A DNA stretch of 64,000 nucleotides from Phycisphaeraceae bacterium (GTDB taxonomy: Bacteria > Planctomycetota > Phycisphaerae > Phycisphaerales > Phycisphaeraceae). Numbering within the stretch: position 1 is the first letter of the stretch; each line of letters opens with the position of its first letter. The stretch covers positions 2,112,001 to 2,176,000 of the forward strand of contig OY771506.1 of NCBI GenBank assembly GCA_963674705.1, written 5' to 3'. The translations under genes and the position numbers were made by a program. The notes under the pieces were generated by a model. The model worked only from the letters and a program-made list of their open reading frames with translations. It was not told the origin of the DNA and searched no databases. Shown piece after piece: positions 1,736 through 23,312 of this stretch.

Positions 1736-3180
1736 CCTAGAGTGGTCCAAACCTAGAGTGGTCCAAACCCTCTTCGGTAAGTCGGGTATGATTTTTTTGT
1801 GGTGCTGGCCCTCTGGATTTCAGATTTTTTCAAAAAGATTTGGGGGTGCTTCAGCGGGAACCAGTGGGGCGATTGGGGCGGCGAAGGGGGCCAGGCAAAT
1901 CGGCATCGACTGGCAATCCGCCAGGGGTGGTCCATAATGTTGGGCAGTTGCCACTACTGGACTTACGACATTTGGACTGGAGGGTGGATTTGTGCTTCAA
2001 CGTTGGTTGATGGTCGCGTTTTTGATGCTTACCGAGGCTTGGTCGGTCCGCCGAGATAACCAGATCCGGTTCCTGAAACTTCAACTCGAACTGTACAAGG
2101 GGAAGGTGCCAGGCAACCGTGTGATCCTGTCTCCGGAAGAGCGTCGTCGCATGCTTCGGTTGGGCAAAAAGCTGGAGCATCAAGGTAGATGATCTCGTCG
2201 GGATCGTGAGTGTCAAGACGTACAGGCGGTGGTTGCGTGAACAAAAAGAGGGCCGGGAACCGGGGCGAGTTGGCCGGCCGCGGAAGATCACCGCGTCGGT
2301 CCGTGCATTGATCCTGCGCTTGGCCAGGGAGAATACCGGCTGGGGTGTAAGGCGGATCGTGGGCGAGTTGCGGAAGCTGGCGCTGACGCCCAGCCGCAGC
2401 TCGGTGCAGCGTGTGCTGGAACGCGAAGGGATCTTGCCGGACCCGGACCGCCGTGCGCCGAAGGGCGTGGCCACGCCGTGGCGGCTGTTCGTGTCGGCAC
2501 ATCTCAACACGATGGTGGCGACAGACTTCTTTTGTAAGAATGTCTGGACACCGTTTGGCAAACGTGTCGCTTTTGGATTGATGTTCATCCATTTGGGTAG
2601 TCGGAAGGTGTTCGTATCGCCGAGCACTTACCATCCGACCGGCGAGTGGGTGCAGCAACAAGCACGCAATGTGACGATGTGGCTGGAGGATGAAAACCTG
2701 GAACTTCGCTTCCTGATCCACGACGGTGACACGAAGTTCACCGAAGCCTTCGACGAACACTTCCGAAACGTGGGCGAACGGATTGTCAAGACGCCGTTCC
2801 AGGCTCCGGTCGCGAATTGTTTCGCCGAATCGTGGATCGGCACCCTTAAACGCGAGTGCCTGAATCACTTCTTCTGCTTCAGCCTCCGCCACATAGACCA
2901 CATCGTGCAAACTTATGTGGACTACTATAATCGTCTCCGCGCGCATCAAGGCAAGGACAACCGGCCGCTGACTATGAGCAATGATCCGATCGAAGTGACC
3001 GAGTCCCCGCCGCCGACTGTGGAAGTCGGGCCTGTTCGGAGACACGTGTTGTTGGGCGGTCTGTTGAATCATTACGAGCGGAAAGCAGCATGAAATAAGC
3101 GAAAACGGGCAGAGCCCAACAAATTGGACCGGCCCCGGCCGGCGGTTGGTTCTCGCCGTACTCGCAAATGGACCACTTCA
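1736..3180 (+). mobile_element. IS3/IS481-like insertion sequence (rve DDE transposase); ends approximate
   Basis: Left end has CCTAGAGTGGTCCAAA twice in tandem (1736-1767). The inverted TGGACCACT is at ~3169-3177, with further GGTCCA copies at ~1928 and ~3125. The transposase lies between them. Confidence 0.65.
1992..3093 (+). pseudogene. DDE transposase/integrase-core protein split by a +1 frameshift near 2184
   Basis: ORF 1992-2192 (...GKKLEHQ) continues in the +1 frame as VDDLVGIVSVKTYRRW into ORF 2206-3093, which has ATDFF / LIHDGDTKF / FAESWIGTLKRE DDE motifs. Confidence 0.75.
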
Positions 3181-4708
3181 CTTATCCACGAGCATCGACA
3201 GCTTATCTCAGGCGTTTGAGCGACTGGAGCGATCACTCCGAGACGATCTAGCCACGGCACGGAAAGATGCGGGCGAGAGGGGTCGCCTTCAGCGAGAAGA
3301 GGTTAGCAAGGCGATGGAGGCGTTTCGATCTGCGATGGTTGACACCCTCTCGAAACTGTCTGAGGCACAGAAGGGCCGCCTTGAGGAGTTTGGGAAACGG
3401 CTGACAGACAACAGCGATGCTAGTATTCGAAAGCTTGACGAAATGAAGACCGCGGTGGATTCGCGTCTCAAGACTTCGCAGGAAGAAACAGCAAAGAGCC
3501 TGGATCAAATGCGGACGGAGTCGAATGCAGGTGCGAAGTCCACACGCGACGAGTCGGCGAAGTCCCTTCGAGAGTTCAGCGAACAGCTTGTTAAGCGTGT
3601 GGCCGACGGATTCAAGGAGCAGAACGACCGCCTGGATAGTTTCTCTCGCCGTTTGGGCGAGCTGATCGAGGCCAGCGACAAGCGTAGCGAAGCCCTGAAA
3701 GCGAGTGTTGAACAACGGCTCGATAAGCTACGTGAGGAAAACGCACAGAAGCTTGCTGAGATGCAGAAGGTTGTTGATGAGAAACTTCAGGGCACGCTTG
3801 AGAAGCGATTGGGCGAGTCATTCAAACAGGTAAGCGAGCGACTGGAGCAGGTACATAAGGGCCTCGGGGAGATGCAGTCCCTTGCAAATGGTGTCGGCGA
3901 TCTCAAGCGAGTCATGACCAACGTCAAATCGAGGGGAACATGGGGCGAATTCCAGCTCTCGGCCATTCTGGAACAGGTATTGTCGACAGATCAGTATGAA
4001 GCGAATGTCGCCACGAAGCCAGGGGGCAGTGAACGTGTCGAATTCGCGATTCGGCTACCCGGTAAGGATGACGCAGATAGCGCGGTGGTCTATCTGCCAA
4101 TTGATGCGAAGTTTCCATCCGAAGATTATCTGCGTCTGATCGACGCCCAAGACGCTGCTGATCCCGATGGCGTGGCAACGGCAAGCAAGCAACTCGAAAA
4201 CGCGATCAAGTCGTGTGCGAAAGATATCTCAACAAAGTACTTGTCTCCTCCCCACACGACTGATTTTGGGATCATGTTCCTCCCAACTGAAGGGCTTTAC
4301 GCTGAGGTTGTACGGAGGGCCGGACTGGTCGAGCATTGTCAACGGCACTGCCGGGTTGTCGTCGCTGGCCCAACGACACTCGCAGCTATTCTGAATTCAC
4401 TTCAGATGGGGTTCCGAACGTTGGCAATTCAGAAGCGTTCAAGCGAGGTCTGGAAAGTTCTCGGGGCTGTTAAGACGGAGTTTGGTAAGTTTGGCGACGT
4501 CATCGCAAAGGTCAAGAAGAAATTGCAAGAAGCGGCCAACACGGTTGACCAAGCCGAAACTCGGACTCGTGTAATGACCAGAGAGTTACGGAATGTCGAA
4601 CAACTGCCTGCCGATCAAGCGGTCGCAGTTCTGGGACTGTCGGACAATGGCGATGAAACGACGACTGACTCTGCGGGTGCGGACGTGATCGACACTCAGG
4701 TGGATTGA
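3146..4708 (+). CDS. rmuC: DNA recombination protein RmuC, probably 5'-truncated
   Basis: Long coiled coil, then NVKSRGTWGE, LPIDAKFP, MFLPTEGLYAE, GPTTLAAILNSLQMGFRTLAIQKRSSEVW. The start overlaps the IS end and no N-terminal TM helix is visible. Confidence 0.85.
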   Translation: MVLAVLANGPLHLSTSIDSLSQAFERLERSLRDDLATARKDAGERGRLQREEVSKAMEAFRSAMVDTLSKLSEAQKGRLEEFGKRLTDNSDASIRKLDEMKTAVDSRLKTSQEETAKSLDQMRTESNAGAKSTRDESAKSLREFSEQLVKRVADGFKEQNDRLDSFSRRLGELIEASDKRSEALKASVEQRLDKLREENAQKLAEMQKVVDEKLQGTLEKRLGESFKQVSERLEQVHKGLGEMQSLANGVGDLKRVMTNVKSRGTWGEFQLSAILEQVLSTDQYEANVATKPGGSERVEFAIRLPGKDDADSAVVYLPIDAKFPSEDYLRLIDAQDAADPDGVATASKQLENAIKSCAKDISTKYLSPPHTTDFGIMFLPTEGLYAEVVRRAGLVEHCQRHCRVVVAGPTTLAAILNSLQMGFRTLAIQKRSSEVWKVLGAVKTEFGKFGDVIAKVKKKLQEAANTVDQAETRTRVMTRELRNVEQLPADQAVAVLGLSDNGDETTTDSAGADVIDTQVD

Positions 4709-4792
4709 TTCGTCGCGGCTATCAAAGGGTAACTGCCGAACGGCCCCAATGGTGATAATCGCTCGGGCGTGATCCGAACTGGAAACGTTCCT

Positions 4793-5060
4793 CTTTGAGC
4801 GCAACCTTCCCATAACCCGAGCCCATGTCTCTGCCCGGCGAAGAGAGACTTTCGGTCCAGACGGGCCGATCTGGCGGCCGGGACCGCTGATCCGGTTATG
4901 ATGTGGGGCGAATAAGAGACACGGATAGAATTAGCCGCCAGTCGTAAATTGAGGCCATAACTGGCGTAAAAACGAAAACGCCACCGAGATCTCTCGGCGG
5001 CGTTCTGCGTTAACCGTGGGGCCGGTTGGGTTTGCAACCGGCCGACTAATAGCGGGGGCA
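4793..5060. repeat. ~265-bp degenerate copy of the att-arm segment at 22981-23249, ending in a tRNA-Met 3' fragment
   Basis: Collinear similarity GAGCGCAACC..CATAACCCGAGC..GAAGAGAGACTTT..AACTGGCGTAAAAA..hairpin..TAGCGGGGGCA. Confidence 0.9.
4975..5004 (-). terminator. Terminator downstream of a former tRNA 3' end
   Basis: AACGCCACCGAG-atct-CTCGGCGGCGTT with a U tract on the minus strand; homologous to 23164-23193. Confidence 0.7.
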
Positions 5061-5162
5061 CGGCTTGGTATCTGCACGCGACCGGACGGCGGCCTCTTCT
5101 GGCCGTTCGCGTGGGGGCCGGACGGCGTGATAGATACCTTCGCATAGTGTGCCTGGGACACG

Positions 5163-5576
5163 TTAAGCCTCTAGAAATCGGCCAATGCGATCTGTCAACT
5201 TGCCTACTTTGGTCGGTTTCGTCTGGCATTCCCAAATCACGAGCACATCCCATCCTTCACGTCTAAGGCGGCGTTGTACTTTTCGATCCCGTTTGACATT
5301 TGCCTCAAATTTCGATGACCAGAATGTCTTGCGTGTACTTGGCATTGACTTTCCTCGCCTACACGAATGGCGGTGCCAGAAGCACCCATGCACGAAAATA
5401 ACCTTTCTACGGCCCGCGAACACAAGGTCGGGTTTGCCTGGCAGGCGGTGATCATGCAATCGGTAGCGATAACCCATGGCATGAGTCAAACGTCGGACCA
5501 CAATCTCGGGCTTGGTGTCGGTCCCACGAATACGCGACATGATCTCACTACGACGAATTGAGGTCATTGTGTCCAT
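5163..5576 (-). CDS. vsr: Very-short-patch repair endonuclease
   Basis: MDTMTSIRRSEIMSRIRGTDTKPE...LPGKPDLVF...FVHGCFWHRH...GWDVLVIWECQ. Confidence 0.95.
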   Translation of the reverse strand: MDTMTSIRRSEIMSRIRGTDTKPEIVVRRLTHAMGYRYRLHDHRLPGKPDLVFAGRRKVIFVHGCFWHRHSCRRGKSMPSTRKTFWSSKFEANVKRDRKVQRRLRREGWDVLVIWECQTKPTKVGKLTDRIGRFLEA

Positions 5577-5601
5577 CTGTTCGCCACGATAAGCTATGTA
5601 A

Positions 5602-6411
5602 GTGGCTGATTCAACGAAACCATCAGGTGTCAACGATCTGGAGGCGATTAAAATCGCCAATTGGCTCCAGGCAGAATCGCGGATCGATAAGATCGGCTTG
5701 GCGATTCGCACCGCCATCGACTGGGTGATCGATGGTGCACGTACTAGACGGTTTGACTTGGATCAGGTTGAGCAAGGTGAAAAGCTGTACCTTGGCAATC
5801 GCGTTGAATACGAAGTTATTCATCAACTCGACCTGATAAAGAACAGTCAAGGCATTGATACTACGATCTGTGATTGTTTGGTTGATATCAAATTTTCGAT
5901 TGCTACAAGTTGGATGATACCACCTGAAGGCGTCGGTCATATCTGTCTATTGCTTTCTGCTGATGACCATAGATCAGTGTATTCGGTTGGGGTGCTGCGC
6001 GCACGGCCGGAATACCTGAATGCGCCAAACCGAGATGGGAAGCGGAGTATCAACAAAAAGAAGGGGTACTCACAAATTGAGTGGGTCACCCAGGATTCTG
6101 GTCTTCAAAAAAATTTCTTACTTCATCTCGAACCCGAAATCCGTGAACGAATACTTTCGGAAAGGAGTGGTCAGGCTAGAGTTACGCAGGCATTCCGCCT
6201 TGTGCTTGAAAGGCCGATTTCTGTTATTGCTTTGGATACTCTCGCCGTGCAACGCGACCCATCGAAGCGCGCCAGAGATGCAAGAAAGGCGCTTGCGAAA
6301 GAAGGTATTCGGGTTCTATGCGGACGATGGGAAGACGATAGAACCGAGGCGAGTAGATTAGGTATGCCCAAACTCAAAGTAGACGAGTGGATCTCTACTC
6401 GGCAGCGCTAA
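5602..6411 (+). CDS. NaeI-family type II restriction endonuclease
   Basis: IDGARTRRFDLDQVEQGEKLYLGNRVE...VDIKFS..WMIPPEGVGHICLL..DD..S..SVGVLRARPEYL pattern; adjacent to a C5-MTase and vsr. Confidence 0.8.
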   Translation: MADSTKPSGVNDLEAIKIANWLQAESRIDKIGLAIRTAIDWVIDGARTRRFDLDQVEQGEKLYLGNRVEYEVIHQLDLIKNSQGIDTTICDCLVDIKFSIATSWMIPPEGVGHICLLLSADDHRSVYSVGVLRARPEYLNAPNRDGKRSINKKKGYSQIEWVTQDSGLQKNFLLHLEPEIRERILSERSGQARVTQAFRLVLERPISVIALDTLAVQRDPSKRARDARKALAKEGIRVLCGRWEDDRTEASRLGMPKLKVDEWISTRQR

Positions 6412-7837
6412 CTAGTTGCATCTTTCTCGCACCCGCCAACAAGTTTGCAAGGTGTTTTCCAATAGCTTCTGCAAGTGGGATTGGCACGGCATTTCCGATT
6501 TGTTTCGCAACATTGATTTTAGTGCCACAGAATTGGAAGTCATCATCGAAGCCTTGAAGACGCGCAGCTTCGCGGTGTGTGATTGGACGGTCCGCCTCCG
6601 GGTGCAGGTATCGTCCCTTCTCCGGCTTGTAGAATTCGGTCCGTATTGTCACCGATGGGCGATCCCACCACAACCGACCGAATAAGTCAGTACCACCTTG
6701 GGTCTTTCGTTTCCAGCATTCAGGCGTGAGTTCGGGTGGTAAATCAAACCGATTACCTCCGGCAGGAATACATGCGTAGCGCTGCTTCGACATTTCGGTC
6801 GGATTTCGGCCAATATGCCAGTTCTTCCCGCTTGGTTTAAATGGCAGATCACCAATTGCATCTCGCACGGTTAGCCAAGCAGGTAGATCATGAGTCTGCA
6901 GCGTGCGACGTTCAGGATTAACGTGTGTCTGCAGCGGTTTGGTAGGACGCTCCCCCTTCATGCCGATGATGATTGCTCGTTTGCGAGTTTGCGGCGCGCC
7001 ATAGTCTGCCGAATTCAATACCCATGATGCTACGTTGTACCCTAGCGATTCAGCTTCGCGCTGAATTTCTATGAACTCTTGCGATTTCAAGAGTGGTGGT
7101 ACATTCTCCATGACAAACGCAATCGGGTTAGCGTCGCGGACCGCACGAAGGTAGTGCCGCCAAAGTTGCCGTCGTGGATCAAAGGGTACACGCTCGCCTA
7201 GATTACTGAAACCCTGACATGGCGGTCCCCCAGCTACAACATCTGCTTTGGGGAATTCTTTGATTTCTTCAATTGCGCACTGGGCAACCCGTTCCGTGAT
7301 GTTGGCGCGTAACGTATCAGACGCGTCGGGGCTCCATTCTACGGCTAGTTCGGTGCGGAACCCTGCACGTTTGAAACCGAGCGCGAGCCCACCACAACCG
7401 GCGAACAACTCGAGTACCGTAGGGCCATCCCCATCGAGGGGCTCATTCAATACCCCATCCCAATCGGTTTCTCGTAGCGCTACAGTATCAAAAGGGTAAA
7501 GCCGATATTCTCGTTTTCCGATTCGCTCCAATGCGAGCACATCGCCCGGCTGAATCTTATGGTGATCGAAAAACTCGCGCACCCAAGTCCGGGAGCGGAA
7601 CTCACGCCTGGGTTTACCCGACTGGGCATCTCTAGCAATGTCAGTTTCGATGATCTTACGAAGGCCATCAATGCGTATCTTGACCGGTCGGCCCGACTTG
7701 CCAGTAGCGAGACTGGGGGCACCAATGCAATCGTCCGGAAAGAAATCGTGGTGACCGGTGATGTAGACATGGCTGTTGCGCAGGTTCCCGGCTGTAACTC
7801 GGATTAACCGCTTTCTGTCTGCAACAGCACCGCTCAA
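6395..7837 (-). CDS. DNA (cytosine-5)-methyltransferase with an extra ~115-aa N-terminal domain
   Basis: Motifs LFAGCGG, GGPPCQGFS, MENVP, QTRKR, REAARLQGF, QIGNAVP. Confidence 0.95.
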   Translation of the reverse strand: MSGAVADRKRLIRVTAGNLRNSHVYITGHHDFFPDDCIGAPSLATGKSGRPVKIRIDGLRKIIETDIARDAQSGKPRREFRSRTWVREFFDHHKIQPGDVLALERIGKREYRLYPFDTVALRETDWDGVLNEPLDGDGPTVLELFAGCGGLALGFKRAGFRTELAVEWSPDASDTLRANITERVAQCAIEEIKEFPKADVVAGGPPCQGFSNLGERVPFDPRRQLWRHYLRAVRDANPIAFVMENVPPLLKSQEFIEIQREAESLGYNVASWVLNSADYGAPQTRKRAIIIGMKGERPTKPLQTHVNPERRTLQTHDLPAWLTVRDAIGDLPFKPSGKNWHIGRNPTEMSKQRYACIPAGGNRFDLPPELTPECWKRKTQGGTDLFGRLWWDRPSVTIRTEFYKPEKGRYLHPEADRPITHREAARLQGFDDDFQFCGTKINVAKQIGNAVPIPLAEAIGKHLANLLAGARKMQLVSAAE

Positions 7838-8175
7838 ATTTTGCTCCTTCGCTCCAAAGGCCTTCTGGCAATGGTCTTATGGTATACACATTTGGGTATA
7901 ATGAAAAGTGGGAAACCCAAACATTTTACAAACACAGATCGAGCAACGAGTTATTGGCAAATATCTGTGAACGAACCATTCATAGATTTTATGGGAAGGC
8001 TTGTATTTTATGCCTTCAACCATTTCTAGATGATTGGTGACGATATCGGCGTGGTTGAGGTAGATCAACGACAGTGCTGATTATTTAGATTTCGATCTTA
8101 CGAATTACCCCTTGAAATGGAAATAAGGAGATAGTCGGGCACCGAGGCCCGGCCTAACCCTCCAAGGAGACCGCC

Positions 8176-8700
8176 GTGATGAGAATCGGACTGACGTTCG
8201 ACGAATACGTGGACCTGACGCTCAAGCCGCTCAAGGGTGCTGACAAAGCATTTCATAGGGGAGCCGAAACCCTCGTAGGGCAGATGTTCCCGATGACCCT
8301 GGGGGCGGCATCGAGCCACCTTCGGTCTCGCGGGTACGATTGCCGGCCCGAAATGCTCGAAGTGCTTGTTCAGAATGGGGTTGTGACGCCCACAGAAGGC
8401 GCGTGGACCCGGGCGGATGTGGACGCCGCCGCAGACCACTTCGAGGACTGCGAGATGTTCACGCCCTACGCCGCCATGTGCCAGACGCTTGGGTGCGGGT
8501 ACGCCGACTTCGAGCGTCCGCTCCGGGAGGCGGCTGAGCGGGAATCCGAGAAGTGGGGCCGGCGCATCCCCGATGATGACCAGTACTTCGTCATGCACCG
8601 CCAGCCACCCCGGGGCGGCGACAACGCCCGCCCGGCGATCATCACCTTCTCGCTGTGCGACGACATCCGGGAGAGGCTCGAGCGCGGCGAGGAGGTCTGA
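8176..8700 (+). CDS. Hypothetical protein, possible MerR/Xis-like winged HTH; first gene of the element's core operon
   Basis: AAGGAG RBS; MTLGAASSHL...LEVLVQNGVVTP...WTRADV resembles a Xis/MerR fold; abuts the next gene. Confidence 0.6.
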   Translation: MMRIGLTFDEYVDLTLKPLKGADKAFHRGAETLVGQMFPMTLGAASSHLRSRGYDCRPEMLEVLVQNGVVTPTEGAWTRADVDAAADHFEDCEMFTPYAAMCQTLGCGYADFERPLREAAERESEKWGRRIPDDDQYFVMHRQPPRGGDNARPAIITFSLCDDIRERLERGEEV

Positions 8701-9276
8701 GTGGAATCCTCACCTTATGAATTGAAACTAACGGACGACCTTCTGGAATACGCCAGGAAGGTCGCCATCAAGGAGGCGCGCAAGTGCTGCGCGCCGCGCC
8801 ACGACTACAAAAACGTCGTTGGTGAGGCGGTTATGCAACTGATTAGGAAGCCATTGAAGTTTGATCCCTCGCGTGGTGCGAGCGAGAAGACCCTGATCTA
8901 CACCATCGTGAAGCGCGCCGTACTACGGTTTGCGGAGCGCGAGGCGAAGGAGGCGCGTAAGTTCAGGCAATTCCCCGAGCGGGTTGGAGCGGCTCAGGAT
9001 GGCGAGGATAACGAACCGGCGCAGAACCAGATCGGCGAGAGCCGGACAAAGGCGCTTAGACGTGGCCGGTGGACCCTGGATGACATGTTTAAGTACATCG
9101 ACAACGAAGACAGCCGCGCCCTGTGCAAGCTGGTCATCGAATGCGATGGCAACAATAGTGAAGCAGCAAGCAGACTCGGGGTATCTGAAGGCACCGTACG
9201 TTATCGCCTGAAACTCCTTGCCCCCAAACTACGTGCGGCCGGTTTCGACCCGTTTCCCGATGGAGAGGTGCCATGA
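8701..9276 (+). CDS. Sigma-70 family (ECF-like) sigma factor
   Basis: Region-2-like KFDPSRGASEKTLIYTIVKRAV; region-4 HTH SEAASRLGVSEGTVRYRL; GGAGG RBS. Confidence 0.7.
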   Translation: MESSPYELKLTDDLLEYARKVAIKEARKCCAPRHDYKNVVGEAVMQLIRKPLKFDPSRGASEKTLIYTIVKRAVLRFAEREAKEARKFRQFPERVGAAQDGEDNEPAQNQIGESRTKALRRGRWTLDDMFKYIDNEDSRALCKLVIECDGNNSEAASRLGVSEGTVRYRLKLLAPKLRAAGFDPFPDGEVP

Positions 9277-11165
9277 GTATCGCGGTGACGAATGACAACA
9301 TGCTGTTGGCGGCACCCGAGGTCGAGATCGAAGCGGGTGCGGAGCGAACGGGTAAGCCGCGCATCAATATCGTCGCTTACACCGGCGGCGTGATGCGGGT
9401 GCCGGGCTGGGGTGATGTGGCCATCGACCTGACCGGGCTTGATGCGACAGGCCAGGTGCCGCTGCTAGCCGATCATGACGCACGCGTCAGCGGCGTCGTG
9501 GGACATGGGCAGGCAAACGTCGCGGATGGCCGATTGATGGTGGCCGGTGTGATGAGCGGCGCGGGCGAAGCGGCGCGTCAGATCGTTGAGATGACCACCG
9601 GCGGATTCTCATTTCAAGCATCGGTCGGCGTCGAACCGGTCGAGCACGAACGCGTGCAGGCGGGCGCAAAGGTACAGGTAAACGGTCGCATGCTGTCCTC
9701 GGCGAGGGGTTTTTCGCTGGTTAAGGTCGGGCGGCTCAGAGAAGTCAGTATTACGCCGTTGGGCGCAGACTCGGGTACGAGCGTCGCCATCGCGGCTTCA
9801 CAACGTAACACGGAAACGCAAGTCATGAGCACGGACGTTCAGAACACCGACGAACAAGCTATTCGCGCCGACGAACGGCAGCGTATTAATCAGATCGAAA
9901 GCCTCTGCGCCAGACCTAGCGGCGGCTGGGGCACCATGCAGCCGAAGGTTGATGCGCTGAAGGCCTCGGCCATCGCGGGTGAGATCAGTGCGCAGGACCT
10001 CTCTGCGGAACTGCTGAACATCCTGCGCGAATCTCGGCCCAAGGTCAGCACGTTCCAACCGACGCAGCCGGTGGGTGGTGTGGCCACCCTCGAAGCGGCC
10101 CTTCTCAAGCGGATGGGGTTGAGCGATCTGGGCGAGAAGGCCCTCGGCGCGATCGCGATGGAGCATGGCGAGCGGATCAAGGCGACGCACGCCCTGGATA
10201 TCTGCCGTGCCGCCCTGATGCTTGATGGTGCTGAGATCCCGCAGGGCCGTGAACAGATGGTGCGTGCGGCGCTCTCGACGTACTCGTTGCCGACGGCGCT
10301 GGGCAACCTGGCCAACAAGCTGCTGCTGGATGCTTACGACGAAGCGCCCGCGACGTGGCGGTCGTTCTGCTCGGTTCGGTCGGTCTCCGACTTCAAGCCG
10401 AACACCGCGATCCGTCCGAGCTTCACCGGCCAGCTGGAGACGGTTGCGCCGGGCGGCGAGATCAAGCACGCGACCGTTGGGGAATGGTTCACGCAGTTCC
10501 AGGCCGACACCTACGGCAAGGTCCTGAGCATCGACCGCCGCGACATCATCAATGATGACCTGGGCGTGTTCGATCAGAGCGCCCGGGCGTTCGGCCGCGC
10601 CGCGATGCGGAAGGTCAGCGACCTGGTGTACGCCACGCTGCTGGCCAATGCCGGCGCGTTCTTCTCGGCGGCCAACGGCAACTACATCTCGGGCGCGGAC
10701 ACGGCGCTGAGCTTCGATTCGTTGGCTCAGGCCATCCAGGCGATGATGCTGCAGCGCGATGACGAAGGCAACGACCTTGACCTGCGGCCGGCCACGCTGC
10801 TGGTGCCGCCGGGGCTTCAGCCTACGGCCAAAGCACTGCTGGAGTCTGAGTTCATCCAGCAGATCTCCGAGCGCATGCCCACCGGCAACTCGCTGCGGCG
10901 GGCGGTCAGCATCGAGGTCGAGCCGCGTCTGAGCAACACCGACAAGTTCAGCGCCGCCAGCGCCAAGCACTGGTATCTGTTCGCCAGCCCGAGCAACACG
11001 CCGATGGTCGTGGCGTTCCTCAACGGCCGGCAGCAGCCCACCGTCGAGTTCTTCGGCCTGGACCAGGACGTGAACAAGCTGGCGGTGAGCTGGCGGGTCT
11101 ACCACGACTTCGGGTCGGCGCTGGTCGATCCGCGTGCGGCGGTCCGCAGCAAGGGTGAAGCGTAG
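9273..11165 (+). CDS. Prohead protease - major capsid protein fusion (HK97 fold, Mu gpT-like head subunit)
   Basis: N-terminal protease motifs VAYTGG, PLLADHD, QASVG, EVSITPLGAD. Capsid part ANKLLLDAY..., SVSDFKP, GGEIKH, TYGKVLSIDRRDIINDDLG, LRPATLLVPP, WYLFA, AFLNG.Q.P, HDFG. Confidence 0.85.
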   Translation: MSIAVTNDNMLLAAPEVEIEAGAERTGKPRINIVAYTGGVMRVPGWGDVAIDLTGLDATGQVPLLADHDARVSGVVGHGQANVADGRLMVAGVMSGAGEAARQIVEMTTGGFSFQASVGVEPVEHERVQAGAKVQVNGRMLSSARGFSLVKVGRLREVSITPLGADSGTSVAIAASQRNTETQVMSTDVQNTDEQAIRADERQRINQIESLCARPSGGWGTMQPKVDALKASAIAGEISAQDLSAELLNILRESRPKVSTFQPTQPVGGVATLEAALLKRMGLSDLGEKALGAIAMEHGERIKATHALDICRAALMLDGAEIPQGREQMVRAALSTYSLPTALGNLANKLLLDAYDEAPATWRSFCSVRSVSDFKPNTAIRPSFTGQLETVAPGGEIKHATVGEWFTQFQADTYGKVLSIDRRDIINDDLGVFDQSARAFGRAAMRKVSDLVYATLLANAGAFFSAANGNYISGADTALSFDSLAQAIQAMMLQRDDEGNDLDLRPATLLVPPGLQPTAKALLESEFIQQISERMPTGNSLRRAVSIEVEPRLSNTDKFSAASAKHWYLFASPSNTPMVVAFLNGRQQPTVEFFGLDQDVNKLAVSWRVYHDFGSALVDPRAAVRSKGEA

Positions 11166-11171
11166 TCGTTC

Positions 11172-11209
11172 AGCGGGCGGGGGCACACTCCTGGGCACTC
11201 GCCCGCTTT
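11172..11209 (+). terminator. Probable terminator after the capsid gene
   Basis: AGCGGGCG...CGCCCGCT stem followed by TT. Confidence 0.5.
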
Positions 11210-11300
11210 AAACCATTCTCACACCGATCGAATTGACGCCTACGGGTAAATGAATTGGGGGCCGCGCTTGTGGTCTGCGCACAGGTAATGGAGTGCCGGT

Positions 11301-11486
11301 ATGACAAATGCCCTGAAAGTACATGGGCCACCGCAGCGTGTGGGCAGTATCGAGATGCGTATGGCAATTGCTGGTTCGACGCACGAATCGGAGCAGCGTT
11401 GGTCCCGGCGCTCAGAAGCCATCGCTGCTTGGCTGCTGTCTGAATGGAAACGCCAGCAATCGCAGGGTAGCAGGGAGGCCTCCTGA
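11301..11486 (+). CDS. Small hypothetical protein translationally coupled to the primase
   Basis: GGAG RBS; TGATG overlap with the primase start. Confidence 0.6.
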   Translation: MTNALKVHGPPQRVGSIEMRMAIAGSTHESEQRWSRRSEAIAAWLLSEWKRQQSQGSREAS

Positions 11487-13918
11487 TGTTTGATGCACGA
11501 CGCTGCGATGACCATGTTCCTCAATGCCTGCGAGACACGCCGCAGTGGGTGTTGTGGAAGTTGGTGGAGCGCGGCGGTAAGCCGACGAAGGTGCCGGTGG
11601 CCCCGAACACGGGCTGGAACGCGTCATCGACTGATCCCGCAACTTGGGGCACGTACAAGCAGGCTACCTTCCGCGCGATGGGGTCGGAAACGTACCGGGG
11701 TGTGGGCTTCGTGTTCACCGAAGCCGACCCCTACTGCGGCATCGATCTGGACGACTGCATTGTTGACGGGCAACTGACGCCCGAAGCTCGTGAGATCATT
11801 GATTCGTTTCCCACGTACACCGAGGTGTCGCCCAGCGGCAAGGGCGTGAAGCTGTTCCTGCGGGGCCGTAAGCCGGAACACGCTGGCTGCGCGACCGGCA
11901 AGATCGAGGGCATGGCCCGTATCGAGGTGTACGACAGCGGGCGGTTCTTCACCGTGACCGGTTGTCAACTCGATGGTACGCCACGTGAGGTGGCTGACTG
12001 CCAGCAGCAGCTCGAGGAGCTGTGCGAACGGCTGTGGCCCAAGCCGCAGGCCAGGCCGGTTGCGGCGTCCACGCCATCACCGGCGCACCACATGGGCAGC
12101 ACCGAACAGGACATGCCTGCACGCGAGCGCCGGTGCATGAACTATATCGAGAGATGCCCCGACGCCATCAGTGGGAACGGCGGTCATAACGCCACGCTGC
12201 GGGCCGCTTGCGAGTGCTACCGTTTCGGCCTGGACGAAACCGCCGCCTGGAGCGTGATGCAGTGGTTCAACGACCGCAAGACCGGCGGCGAGCGCTGGAC
12301 GGATTGCGAACTGAATCACAAGCTCGATGCGGCGAGGAAGAAGGTTGACCAGGCCGGAGAGTTTGCCGTGAGGTTGGTGGATGTTCACGTTGATGCCGCC
12401 GAGATGAGCACGCAGCAGGTCGCGGCGCTGATGACCGATGTGGGTAACGCCGCCCGGCTCGTGCAGCGCTACGGCAACCGCATCCGGTACTGCTACGGAC
12501 CTGAGCAGTGGCTCGTGTGGGACGGTCGGCGCTGGAAGATCGACGAACGGGGCATGATCGTGCGGTTGTGCAAGAAGACGGCGCTGGCGATCCTCGATGA
12601 GGCGAAGAAGGTAGAGGGTGATGCGCAGGACGAATTGATCCGGTGGGCCATGTCCAGCCAGAAGCGGGATCGGCTTACCGCGATGGCAGCATTGGCTCAG
12701 CCCGACGTGGCGGTCGGCCCGGATGACCTCGACGCTGATCCTTGGGCGTTCAACGTGCTCAACGGCACGATTGACCTGCGCACCGGCGAGATCGAACCGC
12801 ATAACCAGACTGATCTGATCACCAAGCTTGCCCCGGTCGAGTTCGATCCCGACGCCACGTGCCCGCGGTTCGATGCGTTCCTCGAGCGGACATTCGCCGG
12901 TGATGTTGACCTCATCCGCTTCGTGCAGCGCTGGCACGGTCATTGCCTAAGCGCCGACATCCGCGAGCAGTACCTGCCCATCTATCATGGCGAAGGCAAC
13001 AACGGCAAGAGCGTGCTGCTGGACACACTCAGCGCGGTGATGGGCGACTACGCCGGTGAAGCCCCGCCCGACCTGGTCACGGTTCGCAAGCACCCCGAGC
13101 ATCCGACCGAGATCGCCGACCTGCTGGGCAAACGGTTAGTCATCGCCAGCGAAACGGAGCGCGACGCCGAACTGCGCCTGCAGCTCATCAAGCGACTGAC
13201 CGGTAACGCCCGGCTCAAAGCCCGACGCATGCGGCAGGACTACTTCGAGTTTGGCCGCACCCACAAGATGATCCTCGTGACCAACAACCGCCCGACGATC
13301 AAAGAGGACACCGAGGCGGCCTGGCGACGCCTGCGGTTGGTGCCGTTCGATGTCATCATCCCGAAGGACGAACGCGATCCTGATCTGATCCGCAAGCTAA
13401 GCCACGAATACTCCGGCATCCTGTCATGGATGGTGTGTGGCTGCGTCGATTGGCTGCGTGAGGGCCTGACCGAGCCGGACGCAGTGACGATCGCGACCGA
13501 AGCGTATCGCGGTGCCGCCAATAGCCTCGATGCGTTCCTGATTGAACGGTGCAGCATGGCCGACGGGTTGATGTGCGCCACGTCCGATCTGCTGGCTGCG
13601 TACGGCGAATGGTGCGCTCAGCACCGGCGCGTTCCGCTACAAGGTAAGGCGCTGGCTGCAGCATTGAAGGCACAGGGATGCATCCCGACGAAGGTCAGCG
13701 GGCAGCGCCATTGGATTGGTTTGGACCTCGATGATGATCCGCGTGGACAGAACGGGCGCAATGGACGCCAGGTGCCCGTTAACGCCTACGTGAGGGGCAA
13801 TACTCCGGTTAACGGGCATCAGGCGTCCAATCCGTCCAATGCGTCCAGTACCCAGGCGATGGCGCTGGATGCGGACGAAGGAAGCAATGGCTTATCACCA
13901 GAGGAATCAACGGATTAG
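11486..13918 (+). CDS. Primase-polymerase (NrS-1-like AEP) / D5_N / SF3 helicase, P4-family replicase
   Basis: PQWVLWK, ASSTDPATW, GIDLDDC, TEVSPSGKG, IEVYDSGRFFTVTG; TDVGNA..L (D5_N); Walker A GEGNNGKS; TNNRP; AWRRL. Confidence 0.9.
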   Translation: MFDARRCDDHVPQCLRDTPQWVLWKLVERGGKPTKVPVAPNTGWNASSTDPATWGTYKQATFRAMGSETYRGVGFVFTEADPYCGIDLDDCIVDGQLTPEAREIIDSFPTYTEVSPSGKGVKLFLRGRKPEHAGCATGKIEGMARIEVYDSGRFFTVTGCQLDGTPREVADCQQQLEELCERLWPKPQARPVAASTPSPAHHMGSTEQDMPARERRCMNYIERCPDAISGNGGHNATLRAACECYRFGLDETAAWSVMQWFNDRKTGGERWTDCELNHKLDAARKKVDQAGEFAVRLVDVHVDAAEMSTQQVAALMTDVGNAARLVQRYGNRIRYCYGPEQWLVWDGRRWKIDERGMIVRLCKKTALAILDEAKKVEGDAQDELIRWAMSSQKRDRLTAMAALAQPDVAVGPDDLDADPWAFNVLNGTIDLRTGEIEPHNQTDLITKLAPVEFDPDATCPRFDAFLERTFAGDVDLIRFVQRWHGHCLSADIREQYLPIYHGEGNNGKSVLLDTLSAVMGDYAGEAPPDLVTVRKHPEHPTEIADLLGKRLVIASETERDAELRLQLIKRLTGNARLKARRMRQDYFEFGRTHKMILVTNNRPTIKEDTEAAWRRLRLVPFDVIIPKDERDPDLIRKLSHEYSGILSWMVCGCVDWLREGLTEPDAVTIATEAYRGAANSLDAFLIERCSMADGLMCATSDLLAAYGEWCAQHRRVPLQGKALAAALKAQGCIPTKVSGQRHWIGLDLDDDPRGQNGRNGRQVPVNAYVRGNTPVNGHQASNPSNASSTQAMALDADEGSNGLSPEESTD
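13743..13847. promoter_or_regulatory. Putative replication origin (inverted repeat plus iterons) in the primase 3' end
   Basis: 22-bp inverted repeat 13762-13783 / 13808-13829 (20/22 match) plus repeated TGGAC/CGTCCA units. Confidence 0.55.
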
Positions 13919-14040
13919 CGGCGATCTGTCCCGGCTTGCGCCGTCGTGGCGGACGGTGGCCCGTCGTGGACGGAATCACCGAGCTTGGCCAATGTTCGGC
14001 GCGACAAACCGAACGCGACACGGCCCAACGTCGGGCCACA

Positions 14041-14097
14041 GGGCGGCGGATAGGTACTTCCAGCGCCCGGTCTGCCTCGTGATGGCGGCGGGAACGG
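14041..14097 (+). other. Lambda-like cos (cosQ-cosN) candidate
   Basis: AGGTACTTCC at 14052, then TGGCGGCG 24 nt after AGGTACT; lambda has GGGTCCT-23 nt-GGGCGGCG. Confidence 0.4.
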
Positions 14098-14288
14098 TCG
14101 CGCCATACCTTTGATTCGCTTGCAGATGAAAAACGGCGCGTTCAAAAGAAACTCTGTCCTCCATGGCGACTGGTTCCGCCGCCATCACGGAAATGGCCGC
14201 AATTCCGAGGACCCATGGGCAGACTTGATGTTCCTCGCGAAACAAGCCCTCATGGTCTGGTAGATACCCACGACCGGAGACCGCGACC

Positions 14289-16121
14289 ATGACTACCACG
14301 ACCACCATCCCCGCCGTCGCTTACCTTCGCCGCTCGTCCGACAAGCAGGAACAGAGCATCGGCGATCAACGCACCGAGATCGTGCGCTATGCGGATGACA
14401 ACGGCTATACCGTCATCCGCGAGTACGTGGACGATGCGATCAGCGGCACGAGCGCCGAGGAGCGCCCGGGCTTTCAGCGGATGATCACCGATGCCGAAGC
14501 GGGCCAGTTCAAGGCTGTGATCGTCTGGAACAGCGACCGGTTCAGCCGGGGCGACGTTACCGAAACCGAGCATTACCGCTATCTGCTTCGTCGCGCCGGC
14601 GTCATGCTCGTTTCCGTGACCGAAGACTACCTGCACCGCGAGAGCTTCGACGGAGACATCTTGCGGACGGTCAAGCAGTTCCAGAATCGGCAGTTCTCCA
14701 TATCGCTATCGCAGAACACGCTGCGCGGCCAGATCTCGGCGGTGCAGGCTGAATCCGATCCCGGCAGGCCATGCCCATACGGGTACGACCGCGAGATCGT
14801 GGGGCCCGACGGGCAGGTGCTCTACTGCGTTCGGTTCTGCCCGGGTCGGGTACGCGAGGTACTCGACGCCAATGGCAACTTGACCGCCACATACCGCAAG
14901 GGCCAATCGCTCCGTAAGCCCGGCAAGGAATGCAAGGGCAGGATGGTGTTGTCGGCACCCGACCGTGTGCAGGTCGTCAAAGACATCTTCGCCGGATGCC
15001 TAGACGGTGTGGGATTCAAAGGCATCGCGGACCGGCTCAACGCCCAAGGCATCCCAAGCCCCAGGGGTGGCCTGTGGAACTTCACCACGATCAAAGCCAT
15101 CCTGATGAATCCGATCTATCGTGGCGATCTGGTTTGGAACCGGCGAACCGAGAGCAAGTTCTATTCGGTTCGGAAGGGACGAGCGGACAAGATGAAGTCG
15201 CGCGACATGGCCGACCGCCCGGTGCTGATGCCCGAAGATGAATGGATCGTCGTGCAGGACGCGGTGCCCGCCATCGTTAGCCGCGAGGATTGGGATCGCG
15301 CGCAGCTCATGGTCATCCGCAGGCGGAAGGCCAAGGGCGGGCAGGGCAAGCAGCGAGACCGGTGGCTTCTATCCGGCGTACTTGTATGCGGGCACTGCGG
15401 CCAGCCGTTCTGGGGCGAACGAAAACGGAAAGGGCGCATCCCGGGTAGAGCCGAGGTCGCATGCAACTACTACACATGTGCCGGGCGTCGGCGATACGGA
15501 AAGAGCACGTGCCCGACATCGGCCAGCGTGAAAGCCGATGAGTTGGAGGCGTGGGTACTCGGCAAGCTCGGCGGCCTGATCTTAAATGATGTCGGTGGCG
15601 TCGATGAGGCGGTTGATCGGTTCGTTGCAGCCACGCTCGGCATGGCGCGGGGTGGCACCGATACCAACCGGATCGTCCGCGAGATCGCAGAGATCGATCA
15701 AACGGTGGCATCGCTAACCAGCAGCCTCGATCCGGCAAACCTGGCGATGCTCAACGACCGGCTGACGCAGATACGAACTCGCCGCGAGCACCTCGAGGCC
15801 GAACTCCGATCCGCCAGGCTGGACGAGCGCCGTCTTGACGCCGACCATCTTCGCCGATGGGTGTACCGGCAGATCGAGTCCTTGGCGGCGATAATCGACG
15901 GCCGGCGCGACCCGCAGCTGCGGAGAACCATGGCGAGCTACATCGACGAGATTCGCATCTTCCCCGAAACCAAGACGGGCGAACTGATTCTCAATAGCAA
16001 CATTTGGGGCCTGATCGGCACCGGGGACGAGGCCCCCAATGAAAAAGACCGCCCGGTTGGGCGGTCGTGTGCAGATACAATAGCGGGGGCAGGATTCGAA
16101 CCTGCGACCTCCGGGTTATGA
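14289..16121 (+). CDS. Large serine recombinase (resolvase + recombinase + Zn ribbon)
   Basis: AYLRRSSDKQEQS catalytic motif, ISGT..ERPGFQRM, DRFSR, PYGY, LSGVLVCGHCG...YYTC...C, coiled coil. The C-terminus AGAGFEPATSGL* is read from the antisense tRNA fragment. Confidence 0.95.
   Translation: MTTTTTIPAVAYLRRSSDKQEQSIGDQRTEIVRYADDNGYTVIREYVDDAISGTSAEERPGFQRMITDAEAGQFKAVIVWNSDRFSRGDVTETEHYRYLLRRAGVMLVSVTEDYLHRESFDGDILRTVKQFQNRQFSISLSQNTLRGQISAVQAESDPGRPCPYGYDREIVGPDGQVLYCVRFCPGRVREVLDANGNLTATYRKGQSLRKPGKECKGRMVLSAPDRVQVVKDIFAGCLDGVGFKGIADRLNAQGIPSPRGGLWNFTTIKAILMNPIYRGDLVWNRRTESKFYSVRKGRADKMKSRDMADRPVLMPEDEWIVVQDAVPAIVSREDWDRAQLMVIRRRKAKGGQGKQRDRWLLSGVLVCGHCGQPFWGERKRKGRIPGRAEVACNYYTCAGRRRYGKSTCPTSASVKADELEAWVLGKLGGLILNDVGGVDEAVDRFVAATLGMARGGTDTNRIVREIAEIDQTVASLTSSLDPANLAMLNDRLTQIRTRREHLEAELRSARLDERRLDADHLRRWVYRQIESLAAIIDGRRDPQLRRTMASYIDEIRIFPETKTGELILNSNIWGLIGTGDEAPNEKDRPVGRSCADTIAGAGFEPATSGL
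16042..16066 (-). terminator. Minus-strand terminator embedded in the recombinase 3' end
   Basis: The minus strand reads GACCGCCC-aacc-GGGCGGTC-TTTTT, 14 nt downstream of the tRNA 3' fragment. Confidence 0.75.
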
Positions 16122-16123
16122 GC
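16081..16123 (-). repeat. 43-bp exact duplication of the tRNA-fMet 3' half (att site)
   Basis: Identical to 23239-23281; identity ends at the anticodon arm. Confidence 0.95.
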
Positions 16124-16396
16124 GTCTAAAACGGCAAAAACCCAGACGCTTGTCTTTGAGGCATTTACAGCAATCGCAACGGTTTACGTCCGTTGCGCTG
16201 GGTGCCCATCATAGCCATTTTTGCCATGTTTTCCAGCTCATTTGGCGCAGATTCTGGCGCAATAAAACGGACTCGAGTCAGCGTTTCTCCGGGTGTTCAC
16301 ACCGACGATGAGTTGTATGGCAAAAGAACTGGTATTGTATTTGAGATGTGAGAGAGCTATTCAGCACTCGATATTACTGCGTTCTGCGGGAAACGG

Positions 16397-17248
16397 ATGG
16401 AGGTAACAGTGAAATATATCGTCATTATTACTGTGACTGTTATGTCGTCGGTCCTAACAGCGAGAGCTGAAAATACCGAAAAACCAGACTTTGAGTCAAT
16501 GGATAGGCAGACAATGATTGCTCTATTGGAAGAGCAATACGAAGAAATAAAACAATTAAAGAATATGGTTGAAAAACTAGTAGAGGCTAATTTAGATGAA
16601 AAGGAAACAATTGATCAATCATTTTTAATCGGAAGTGTAAAAATTGTTATACCTGCACCGTTAGATGGTTTTGTCGAAATTGGAGAAATAAATCGCGACA
16701 TTATGGAAGTATTTGTTCCTGATACTAATAAGTTAGTATGTGGATTTGTAATGCCGGATGACCTGGCGCGTATGAATGAAATGGACGAAGACCTAGTCTT
16801 GGATAGATATGGATTAGTGCAAATATATCGTGAAACTGCAGATCAAGAGATGAGTGAGCAAGATTTTGAGAAGATAGCACTAATGTTCGACGAACTAATG
16901 AAGGGTGAATTTGGGTCTATTCTAGATAAAGCCAGTAATGATCTGAATCAAAGACTTGAAGATGCGGGTATTGATGCTCAGGCAAGTATTAAAAAGCCTG
17001 TCAACCTAGGGAAGTTATTTACAATCAAAGATGCTTCTGGTTATGGTTTTATTATGCCGTATGACTTAAAAATGGATGGTGACGATGAGAGTTTAACTAT
17101 GGCTGCTGGTATATCTATCCTCCGGGTGAAGAATCGATTCATGTTCTTATACTTATTTGATACATATGAGAATGCGGAAAGTATCAAATGGATTGATAGC
17201 ACCAGTGAAAGTTGGTGTAAAGCGATATTAAAGGCTAATAATCAATAG
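16397..17248 (+). CDS. Hypothetical secreted protein (AT-rich cargo)
   Basis: 283-aa ORF with a signal-peptide-like N-terminus ending ARA. Confidence 0.7.
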   Translation: MEVTVKYIVIITVTVMSSVLTARAENTEKPDFESMDRQTMIALLEEQYEEIKQLKNMVEKLVEANLDEKETIDQSFLIGSVKIVIPAPLDGFVEIGEINRDIMEVFVPDTNKLVCGFVMPDDLARMNEMDEDLVLDRYGLVQIYRETADQEMSEQDFEKIALMFDELMKGEFGSILDKASNDLNQRLEDAGIDAQASIKKPVNLGKLFTIKDASGYGFIMPYDLKMDGDDESLTMAAGISILRVKNRFMFLYLFDTYENAESIKWIDSTSESWCKAILKANNQ

Positions 17249-17422
17249 AGTTGTTGTTAAGATGGTGCTAGGTATGGAAGAAAATTGATTATTAGTATTG
17301 AAAAGTTAATGCCTTTATGTGACAAAGTTTCTACTTCCGGGGGTAGCCCGGGGTACAGGGGGCGGCAATGAGCACACCTGTACGTATGATGCGGTACGAC
17401 CAGTTGTTCTGGGGATCATCTC

Positions 17423-18391
17423 ATGAGCGATAAGAAAGCGCGTTTGAGGAATTGGGCAGCATCCGTCCCACCTTTGCTCGCATATAGTGCAATCAATATT
17501 GCTTCGTCGGCAGTAGATGAATACTACATCCTCGAAGAACTACGACAACGAATTGATTCACCATTACTGATGCCGCTTCCGCCAGTAAAGGTATGGATGG
17601 GTTACTACCGTAAACACAGATTCCTGAGTCCCGTTATCGATATGCACCTCGGCCTAGATGGCGAAGAATGGCTAACTGCTCTTAATTTCGCTGGTGCTTT
17701 AAGAGAGCATGACAAACTCAGTCGCGAGGAACTATTGAGCTGGTGGAATGGAATGACTCAAGAGGATAGACGGAAGTTTGTACTAGCTACGGCTGAATTA
17801 CATGAATGTATAAGAAAAATTGTTGAAGCTCAGATAACGGCTCTTGCTGTTGGTGAGGTTGGAGAGCCGAACGAAGTAAAAAGCTTAGTATCTACGCCAG
17901 AGATACAATTTATTATTCGAGTCCTTGTTCCGTGCTGGGCGAAGTGCCAAATGTATCCGGGTGAGTTGTTGAGGGCAGCTAGATCGGGTGAATTGCTGGC
18001 TCTAGAGCAACTGCTTGCAATCGACAAATCCATAGTAGCAGATCCAAAGATACACGAACAAATACACCAGACTGCTAGCGGTTCGAACAAAGCAAGGTTT
18101 GAAAGAATCGCTAATGCTTTTAGAGCCCCCACGATTGGCCGTATCAGCCTGAAAAGCGTTAAGCTGTTATCAGCTGCATTAGTAGGACAGTCTGCACATG
18201 AATTGGGACACCCTCTTACTGAGCCGCAAATACGAGAGTTGTTTGATTCGATAGCTGCAATTGAGGGGAAACTTCGCGATACTGACCTACCGAAGAGCTC
18301 AGAAGCGTTATCAAAGGCCCTGCAACGTAAGAAGCCAGAATGGGCTCCGATGATCAGGCGGACAAAAGTTGTTGCCGAAATGTCCGGGTAA
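17423..18391 (+). CDS. Hypothetical protein
   Basis: 322-aa ORF immediately upstream of rep; no motif recognised. Confidence 0.7.
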   Translation: MSDKKARLRNWAASVPPLLAYSAINIASSAVDEYYILEELRQRIDSPLLMPLPPVKVWMGYYRKHRFLSPVIDMHLGLDGEEWLTALNFAGALREHDKLSREELLSWWNGMTQEDRRKFVLATAELHECIRKIVEAQITALAVGEVGEPNEVKSLVSTPEIQFIIRVLVPCWAKCQMYPGELLRAARSGELLALEQLLAIDKSIVADPKIHEQIHQTASGSNKARFERIANAFRAPTIGRISLKSVKLLSAALVGQSAHELGHPLTEPQIRELFDSIAAIEGKLRDTDLPKSSEALSKALQRKKPEWAPMIRRTKVVAEMSG

Positions 18392-18420
18392 TCTGAAAAC
18401 TGCCTCCTAGTCTGGGGGGC

Positions 18421-19831: not shown

Positions 19832-19899
19832 GTGATCCGCCGATCAATTGATTCTGCTCTACCAATGGCTGCCCCGGAGATGCAAGTCCGCCGGGGTGG

Positions 19900-22164: not shown

Positions 22165-22194
22165 TATTGCCTCGCACAAATATTGGCGACGATT

Positions 22195-22872: not shown

Positions 22873-22980
22873 GATCTAGGACTGACCAACCTCACAAAGA
22901 GACCTGTCTATGCAAACCATCGCGCCGGGATCCCGTTTGCCATAACCGGAGGGTGATGATTCCGTACTCAACTTCTTCCA

Positions 22981-23238
22981 CTTCGAGCGCAACCTCCCCA
23001 TAACCCGAGCCTCTGTCTCTGCCCGTCGAAGAGAGACTTTTGGCCGAGACGGTACGATTTGGTGGTCGGAACGGCCGATTCGGTTATGGCGTTGGGCGGA
23101 CGAGAGATACGGATCGAATTGGCGGCCAGCCGTAAATTGTGGCCAGAACTGGCGTAAAAAGCGAAAACGCCGCTGAGGTTTCTCAGCGGCGTTCGCCGTT
23201 AACGGGTGGGTCGGTCAGTTGTGTAACCGAACCATAAG
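22981..23238. repeat. att-arm segment homologous to 4793-5049
   Basis: Collinear alignment by eye over ~255 bp. Confidence 0.9.
23164..23193 (-). terminator. tRNA-fMet terminator
   Basis: AACGCCGCTGAG / CTCAGCGGCGTT perfect stem with a U tract on the minus strand. Confidence 0.8.

Positions 23239-23312
<74 letters not shown>

Follow-up and report, generated by a model that had tools for sequence, protein, structure and literature searches.

We analysed a 64,000-nucleotide stretch of DNA (the window) from a Phycisphaeraceae bacterium of the phylum Planctomycetota (contig OY771506.1, positions 2,112,001 to 2,176,000), which contains a mobile element that is most probably an intact cos-type phage satellite, working like a Gram-negative phage-inducible chromosomal island (PICI) and belonging to an old family centred on the Planctomycetota. 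The element is bounded by a 13-bp att core, AATAGCGGGGGCA, the two copies of which are spaced 11,031 bp apart and ranked top in an att scan that also scored inverted-repeat arms; the final 12 bases of the core occur at just these two places across the 5.54-Mb genome. An earlier note on this DNA had proposed an element of this size with both att junctions, and the scan and the genome-wide search for the core bear it out. The inner arm after attL and the arm preceding attR are inverted repeats of each other, as is expected for the attP of a serine recombinase. The att core overlaps the 3' end of tRNA-Met, of which the 3' half is present at attR as a 43-bp copy, and the intact gene lies 7 kb further on; this fragment is the target site of the element and now serves as the att duplication of a neighbouring island. 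On the left, flanking positions 4788-5075 share 80% identity with the end of the island adjoining the intact tRNA-Met, and the element is therefore part of a stack of islands at this tRNA. A public contig covers 3136-16109 with zero differences, and may derive from the source sample.

Proteins were annotated by profile searches of Pfam, PHROGs, NCBIfam and PADLOC (Table 1), revealing the order cargo, orfA, sigma factor, capsid, primase, cos-like site and recombinase. The sigma factor, protease-capsid fusion, primase with superfamily 3 (SF3) helicase and serine recombinase named in the earlier note were each confirmed by profile matches, and its core does lie uninterrupted on one strand (8176-16121); the note had overlooked two minus-strand genes in the left 2.7 kb, which is type II restriction-modification cargo, as well as the cos-like sites, the tRNA-Met target and the motif at 8098-8127. 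This last occurs at 13 distinct cassette loci including the window and at no helper-prophage locus, with one AT-rich match elsewhere in locus L060; a scan for sigma-70 promoters and terminators performed at chance level. The stop codon of the sigma factor overlaps the start of the capsid gene, whose product also matches a Mu gpT-type capsid chain weakly (E 1e-4), its fold being otherwise assigned from profile matches. Most sister elements carry an AAA_25 primase-helicase in place of the D5/P4-type primase. The recombinase ORF extends through attR to a stop codon within the tRNA fragment, giving 610 amino acids when integrated and a predicted 629 in the circle. The open reading frame (ORF) 8176-8700, called helix-turn-helix (HTH)-like in the earlier note and orfA here, had no match in the four databases and only sub-threshold leads in the atlas; comparison with a TerS profile gave a probability of 0.5%, and searches gave no support for an HTH or Rpp identity. 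It is nevertheless a marker of the family, with homologues in 372 clusters at 90% identity and no Pfam domain among the 120 listed. As the note had held, the element contains no homologue of a terminase, portal or tail gene, including in a search with helper TerS proteins, and its gaps are small (338, 135 and 370 bp).

Table 1. Features of the satellite and its target site (positions within the window)
Feature	Position	Strand	Evidence and remarks
attL core, 13 bp	5048..5060	+	inner arm and pre-attR arm form an inverted repeat
Vsr very-short-patch nicking endonuclease (cargo)	5163..5717	-	PF03852 E 3e-30; PADLOC Vsr; annotated start may be too early
NaeI-family type II restriction endonuclease (cargo)	5602..6411	+	PF09126 E 1e-59; PADLOC REase_II
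C5 cytosine methyltransferase (cargo)	6395..7837	-	PF00145 E 4e-67; PADLOC
Two-part conserved motif 5' of the orfA-sigma-capsid operon	8098..8127	+	candidate promoter or operator
orfA, conserved 174-amino-acid protein, no known family	8176..8700	+	family marker gene
Extracytoplasmic function (ECF)-type sigma-70 factor	8701..9276	+	Sigma70_r2 over cut-off; TIGR02937 48 bits (cut-off 42.9)
Prohead protease-scaffold-major capsid fusion, 630 amino acids	9273..11165	+	PF25209; phrog_4523 'major head and protease'
orfB, small conserved ORF coupled to primase start	11301..11486	+	
Primase with D5/P4-type SF3 helicase	11486..13918	+	D5_N; TIGR01613 P4-family primase
cos-like site, copy 1	14047..14124	+	cosQ-like heptamer 14052-14058; lacks downstream T-rich part; profile E 0.074
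cos-like site, copy 2, inverted	14129..14219	-	heptamer 14208-14214; profile E 1.5e-5
Large serine recombinase	14289..16121	+	Resolvase, Recombinase and Zn ribbon
attR core	16079..16091	+	att scan
43-bp copy of tRNA-Met 3' half	16081..16123	-	100% identical to 23239-23281
Intact tRNA-Met (context)	23238..23312	-	

The same architecture recurs widely. Searches with the capsid protein matched 7 genome, 14 metagenome and 2 viral loci, and homologues were present in 47 of 401 phylum-level genomes (E<=1e-20) and 29 of 401 class-level genomes (E<=1e-100), being at least 55% identical in 24 of the latter 401; the named relatives fall in the Phycisphaerae and Planctomycetia, with one record labelled as a proteobacterium. 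Flanking sequence was taken from 40 phylum-level places, chosen by rank and flank, and from all 24 further class-level matches, and 83 loci were compared after removal of four duplicates (L118, L126, L092 and L080) and one weak match (L091). We divided these by capsid identity to the window into 43 close loci (at least 50%, window included) and 40 distant loci (below 50%), counting only where the flank sufficed; since some of the queries derived from these very loci, the positive counts are in part built in, and it is the zeros that constitute the test. Among close loci there was no portal gene upstream (0/33) and no cement gene downstream (0/40), and among distant loci these were found in 24 of 37 and 23 of 40 cases respectively. 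Downstream of the close capsids there is a primase or helicase (34/38), and upstream a sigma-like gene in 18 of 33; orfA is present in 25 of 33, a serine recombinase in 20 of 26 and a tyrosine integrase in 4 of 26. In the sisters L123, L085 and L087 the place of the serine recombinase is taken by a tyrosine integrase. Four portal-less cassettes (L051, L053, L138 and L140) have a tape-measure-like gene after the capsid, with a tail-region gene in addition in L140, and are perhaps another satellite variant. In L004 a sister stands in tandem with a second, closely related recombinase (3396-5693, 15062-16954), and in L120 and L121 a second recombinase adjoins the element's own.

The cassette capsids form a deep clade. 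In a maximum-likelihood tree of 57 capsids (a quick analysis, midpoint-rooted and without bootstrap), 28 cassette capsids lie beyond a branch with a Shimodaira-Hasegawa-like approximate likelihood-ratio (SH-aLRT) support of 99, and a FastTree analysis of 85 capsids recovered a cassette clade of 42 rows with support of 97; neither clade contains a portal-linked capsid. L073, and perhaps also L060, have separate origins outside it. The ratio of non-synonymous to synonymous substitution (dN/dS) for the capsid was 0.11-0.26 for 14 of the 15 valid pairs and reached 0.47 for the other, two out-of-frame pairs with L039 having been dropped. Capsid protease residues H68, S117 and E157 are invariant in 23 aligned proteins (16 cassette, 7 prophage), the histidine and serine being what we take to be the catalytic residues of a prohead protease. 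Element sizes could be mapped for 10 of the 18 elements tried and range from 10,087 to 11,669 bp; the att scan gave credible pairs for about six of the 18, and four more were obtained from the longest direct repeats.

These results bear on whether the element is the deletion relic of a complete prophage, a reading to which we attach hardly any probability. It would explain why the capsid, the cos-like site and, in some sisters, a HARE-HTH gene are homologous to parts of helper prophages, and L073 illustrates that the prophage clade itself can give rise to a cassette. It is contradicted by the absence of lesions, the presence of both att sites, a gene order conserved in dozens of genomes, a separate deep clade and purifying selection, and by orfA, which is essentially absent from prophage head modules. 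Of the observations that the earlier note had named as fatal to a satellite, close homologues confined to complete prophages and relaxed selection on the capsid failed to appear. As judged from its sequence and that of its relatives, therefore, the element is best regarded as a satellite, as the note had supposed, one that is intact and belongs to an old Planctomycetota-centred family.

The portal-bearing distant loci are lambda-like prophages that encode a TerL of gpA type, a lambda portal, cement, a tail tube and a tape measure, and prophages with this terminase and portal and a capsid of the same family are the likely helpers, in keeping with the lambda-like helper first suggested. At class level, a helper-type TerL was found in 17 of 24 satellite-bearing genomes and 113 of 377 others (Fisher p 1.4e-4), a comparison to be read with the caveats that related genomes are not independent observations and that capsid-less islands may hold some of the TerL genes. 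Several sisters are lodged within helper prophages: L093 splits the tail-tube gene, L134 splits the tape-measure gene at its end, L042 reads into the end of a capsid gene, and L041 lies just 5' of TerS. In a tree of 18 recombinases, from which helper recombinases were left out, the enzymes of helper-embedded sisters stand apart from the tRNA-Met/tRNA-Pro clade that holds the window's enzyme. Repeats at att did not fix the genome lengths of helpers. In L093 (5922-6167, 17363-17569), L134 and L042 the recombinase ORF continues across attR in phase with the disrupted helper gene, and the integrated enzyme therefore bears the C-terminus of its target.

A further connection to these helpers comes from the gap between the primase and recombinase genes, which holds a non-coding motif common to the sister elements and represented in the window by two copies (14047-14219). 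The heptamer of the second copy is identical to that found 30 nt before the end of the lambda record. A profile of satellite sites matched 11 of 20 helper-side loci (E 8e-6 to 1.1) and gave no match in reversed sequence; the helper sites lie between the replication genes and a gene for a ParB-methyltransferase that precedes TerS and TerL. At E<1e-4, a profile of 7 prophage sites matched 20 of 34 cassette loci, including a host prophage's own site, against a best reversed-sequence control of E 0.16; it also gave matches in 5 of the 7 new helper loci and in 20 of the 31 close ones. The 7 sites were chosen with a pattern designed after the satellite sites had been seen, so the two profile tests are not fully independent. 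When satellite sites were matched to helper sites, L121 and L120 scored best with L147. The phage RcFrancesLouise shares the helper gene order, and its genome begins just 5' of the ParB-like gene, that is, with its end at the position of the site; RcC phages have 11-nt 5' overhangs (PMC8601537). In four of four phages with mapped 5' cohesive ends (lambda, RcFrancesLouise, RcCronus and RcGingersnap) a similar heptamer stands 26-33 nt before the cut. Across 39 planctomycete sites the heptamer takes three variants resembling those of the four phages, being equal to lambda's at 11 sites, and sits 32 nt before a conserved GC-rich 11-mer. Lambda-like phages share a highly conserved 7-bp cosQ (PMC4669245). 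Phages with defined ends were also sought through the ParB-methyltransferase, and none started at that gene among 60 of the 80 listed. The shared site of about 90 bp is thus likely, on these comparisons, to be a cos packaging site of the helper type. A strong copy (E 9e-10) is also present in L165 (G000:C1:541828-550409), an island at tRNA-Gly with a tyrosine integrase and a primase-helicase-like ORF; it has no capsid homologue and is possibly a capsid-less satellite of the same helpers.

We propose the following sequence of events for the satellite. When a helper with a gpA-type terminase and lambda-type portal becomes active, the recombinase would excise the element as a circle, the primase-helicase would replicate it, and the sigma factor would turn on the orfA-sigma-capsid-primase operon. 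The helper terminase would then cut the cos-like site, and the DNA would be packaged in heads containing the self-maturing capsid protein of the satellite; portal, neck, tail and lysis would come from the helper. Restriction-modification cargo would protect the host cell meanwhile. The copy in the window, being without a resident helper, would await an infecting phage.

Several observations sit uneasily with this scheme. The window's genome (one contig, 96.6% complete) contains no helper, five Pfam searches and tblastn having found neither terminase nor portal, so that the cognate full prophage for which the earlier note had proposed a search is missing; and no excised circle (attP) or empty-site joint was seen in the contigs of three public runs. 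A joint of 4972 to 16081 was traced to the paralogous island end. At the site itself, neither profile scored the end junction of lambda or RcFrancesLouise, and for this reason its likeness to cos rests on the heptamer, spacing and position; a test for dyad symmetry at the presumed cut gave nothing specific, the best axis lying elsewhere; and the site of L093 scored worst with the very prophage that hosts L093. Satellite and helper capsids are just 33-38% identical (33-35% between embedded satellites and their host prophages), and docking on the helper portal is accordingly not assured. The downstream half of the site comprises two blocks at a fixed spacing of 19-20 nt in 36 of 39 cases. Spacing of this kind resembles ECF promoters, and might indicate that the shared site is a late promoter recognised by an ECF sigma factor and not a packaging site. 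Such a promoter would be well placed before the helper late operon, and sigma-like or HTH matches occur in 10 of 27 helper loci. We consider a promoter alone unlikely, since the upstream heptamer matches the ends of all four cos phages in the same variants, the fuller copy in the window faces backwards, toward the primase, and in satellites the site follows the capsid gene, the operon of which carries a separate motif; promoter and packaging roles could coexist.

The satellite capsid may form shells of its own, and heads would probably be small, holding one genome of 10-12 kb each, although we regard this particular point as close to evenly poised. Alternatively, the satellite is of the cos type and its capsid is accessory or interfering, poisoning helper heads or co-assembling with them as does Ccm of SaPIbov5, or is dispensable, with multimers packaged in heads of helper size. 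We rate this as less likely than not. Its precedent is EcCICFT073, which tolerates loss of its capsid gene without a phenotype and whose DNA is packaged in full-size heads at phage length (PMC6092414, PMC10111431), a further point against own-capsid heads; Ccm is described as occupying pentamers only (PMC8569155), and scaffold-linker lengths overlap between the two groups of capsids (median 110, 92-199, n=21, against median 151, 109-223, n=25). Against an accessory role are a complete protease-scaffold-capsid fusion with its protease residues kept, low dN/dS over a deep clade, and element sizes confined to 10.1-11.7 kb despite differing cargo. Returning to the satellite with heads of its own, its fullest form would have small heads made wholly of the self-maturing capsid protein, which accept the helper's portal, terminase, neck and tail and are timed by the satellite's own sigma factor, with one recombinase clade having also reinvented helper-embedding; we put this forward tentatively, at somewhat less than an even chance. 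If true, own-capsid small heads would be a working intermediate between PICIs and capsid-forming PICIs (cf-PICIs), and lone satellite capsid genes would gain a function. Dependence on a tailed helper might itself be questioned, given 'twilight' mini viruses, which are described as HK97-fold entities of about 8.9 kb with capsid, scaffold, sigma factors, replicase and integrase and with neither terminase nor portal (bioRxiv 10.1101/2025.06.18.659913). That the element is autonomous in this way, lacking portal and tail, is very improbable: the site held in common with tailed helpers, insertion in helper late genes and co-occurrence with helper TerL all point to dependence, and a Pfam search of the element's proteins found no encapsulin domain.

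Among known satellites, the capsid gene is a core PICI component in SatelliteFinder, with a median PICI size of 9.5 kb (bioRxiv 10.1101/2022.09.14.508007), and 21 of 29 reference Gram-negative PICIs carry one (PMC10111431). Judged by the SatelliteFinder core, the element has an integrase, primase-replicase and capsid gene, no tail or lysis genes and a suitable size (11,031 bp); it lacks the small terminase, as do EcCICFT073 and 11capE, and the regulator, there being no match to AlpA, MerR or Stl for 8176-8700, 8701-9276 or 11301-11486 in Pfam, PHROGs or NCBIfam. Nor does it follow the Gram-negative PICI order int-alpA-pri-ori-late genes. The closest parallel is with Gram-negative cos-type PICIs such as EcCICFT073 (PMC6092414; PMC9026076), which is similar in size and has a primase, a major capsid gene of its own without terS, two working cos sites where the element has two cos-like copies, a lambdoid helper, genes that mostly run one way and accessory cargo. 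The element differs in using a serine recombinase at tRNA 3' ends where theirs is a tyrosine integrase, in having an ECF sigma factor and orfA and no AlpA, in placing before the primase a capsid that is a protease-scaffold fusion, in lacking a recognised Rpp-like gene, and in its phylum. PmCI172 is reported to combine small heads with a capsid homologue (PMC6092414). Helper-embedded PICIs (HE-PICIs) such as 11capE, with 11 kb, its own capsid, no terS reported and a cos common with its helper (PMC10111431), form a tyrosine-integrase clade with alpA, from which the element is separated by its serine recombinase and want of AlpA; the window copy is at the tRNA-Met fragment and not in late genes, whereas sisters L093 and L134 are embedded likewise.

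The remaining systems are more distant. cf-PICIs such as EcCIEDL933 (bioRxiv 10.1101/2022.09.08.507074) are likewise described as encoding a capsid and a maturation protease of their own, with capsids that group separately from those of phages, but the element has none of their portal, head-tail connectors, HNH, TerS and TerL. P4-like markers are missing, with no Psu, Delta, Sid, Ash or AlpA among element ORFs in Pfam, PHROGs or NCBIfam. PICI-like tycheposons (bioRxiv 10.1101/2020.12.28.424599), compared by description only, share tRNA targets, a primase-helicase, a major capsid protein or terS and, in a minority, a large serine recombinase; they differ in belonging to marine cyanobacteria, mostly having tyrosine recombinases and, for PICI-like ones, being reported without cargo. 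SaPIbov5 with Ccm is alike as a satellite of the cos type bearing a capsid homologue with the potential to alter head size, but Ccm is described as co-assembling with the helper capsid protein and the element's gene carries its own protease and scaffold (PMC8569155). Among reference satellites, serine recombinases are listed for PLEs only (PMC9618062). The element probably works like a cos-type Gram-negative PICI yet falls outside the PICIs on regulator and gene order, and it is neither a cf-PICI nor P4-like.

It follows that the strategy is a known one, and not new as the earlier note had suggested: EcCICFT073 and the HE-PICI 11capE already carry a capsid without terS and use the helper's cos. 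The element's novelty lies in its phylum, its serine integrase, a sigma factor replacing AlpA, the unknown marker gene orfA and the complete protease-capsid fusion. The note's other claim, that such satellites are undescribed in Planctomycetota, stands within the literature searched, most subscription journals being outside its coverage; Planctomycetota are absent from the main text of three surveys (bioRxiv 10.1101/2022.09.14.508007, PMC10111431, PMC9618062), whose supplementary host lists could include planctomycetes. A family of capsid-carrying planctomycete satellites is therefore apparently undescribed, and extends PICI-like satellites to this phylum as a sizeable family, with close capsids in 24 class-level genomes and orfA in 372 clusters. 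The results point to the helpers of planctomycete satellites, offer a candidate packaging site in these phages, and indicate that enterobacterial solutions (lone capsid, borrowed cos, doubled cos and late-gene embedding) recur with integrases and regulators that are unrelated. Why many PICIs retain a capsid gene is left unsettled in PMC6092414 and PMC10111431, and a protease-scaffold-capsid in one gene makes the role of a lone capsid easy to probe by expression. Recombinases that target tRNA and phage genes also come with mapped att sites.

Other islands lie around the element and elsewhere. Between the tRNA fragment and the intact tRNA-Met, a second island (16124-23237) carries a rolling-circle Rep (PF02486), an excisionase-like HTH protein, an Mrr-nSTAND3 protein (PADLOC PDC-S73) and a broken tyrosine integrase. 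Leftward, 3146-5047 holds an RmuC gene followed by a 289-bp end that is 80% identical to 22976-23263, representing a third, related island. A further island at tRNA-Leu (G000:C1:3067287-3073353) has an integrase-like ORF and a D5-type primase, and about 30 tRNA genes are arrayed on one strand at G000:C1:622407-634804.

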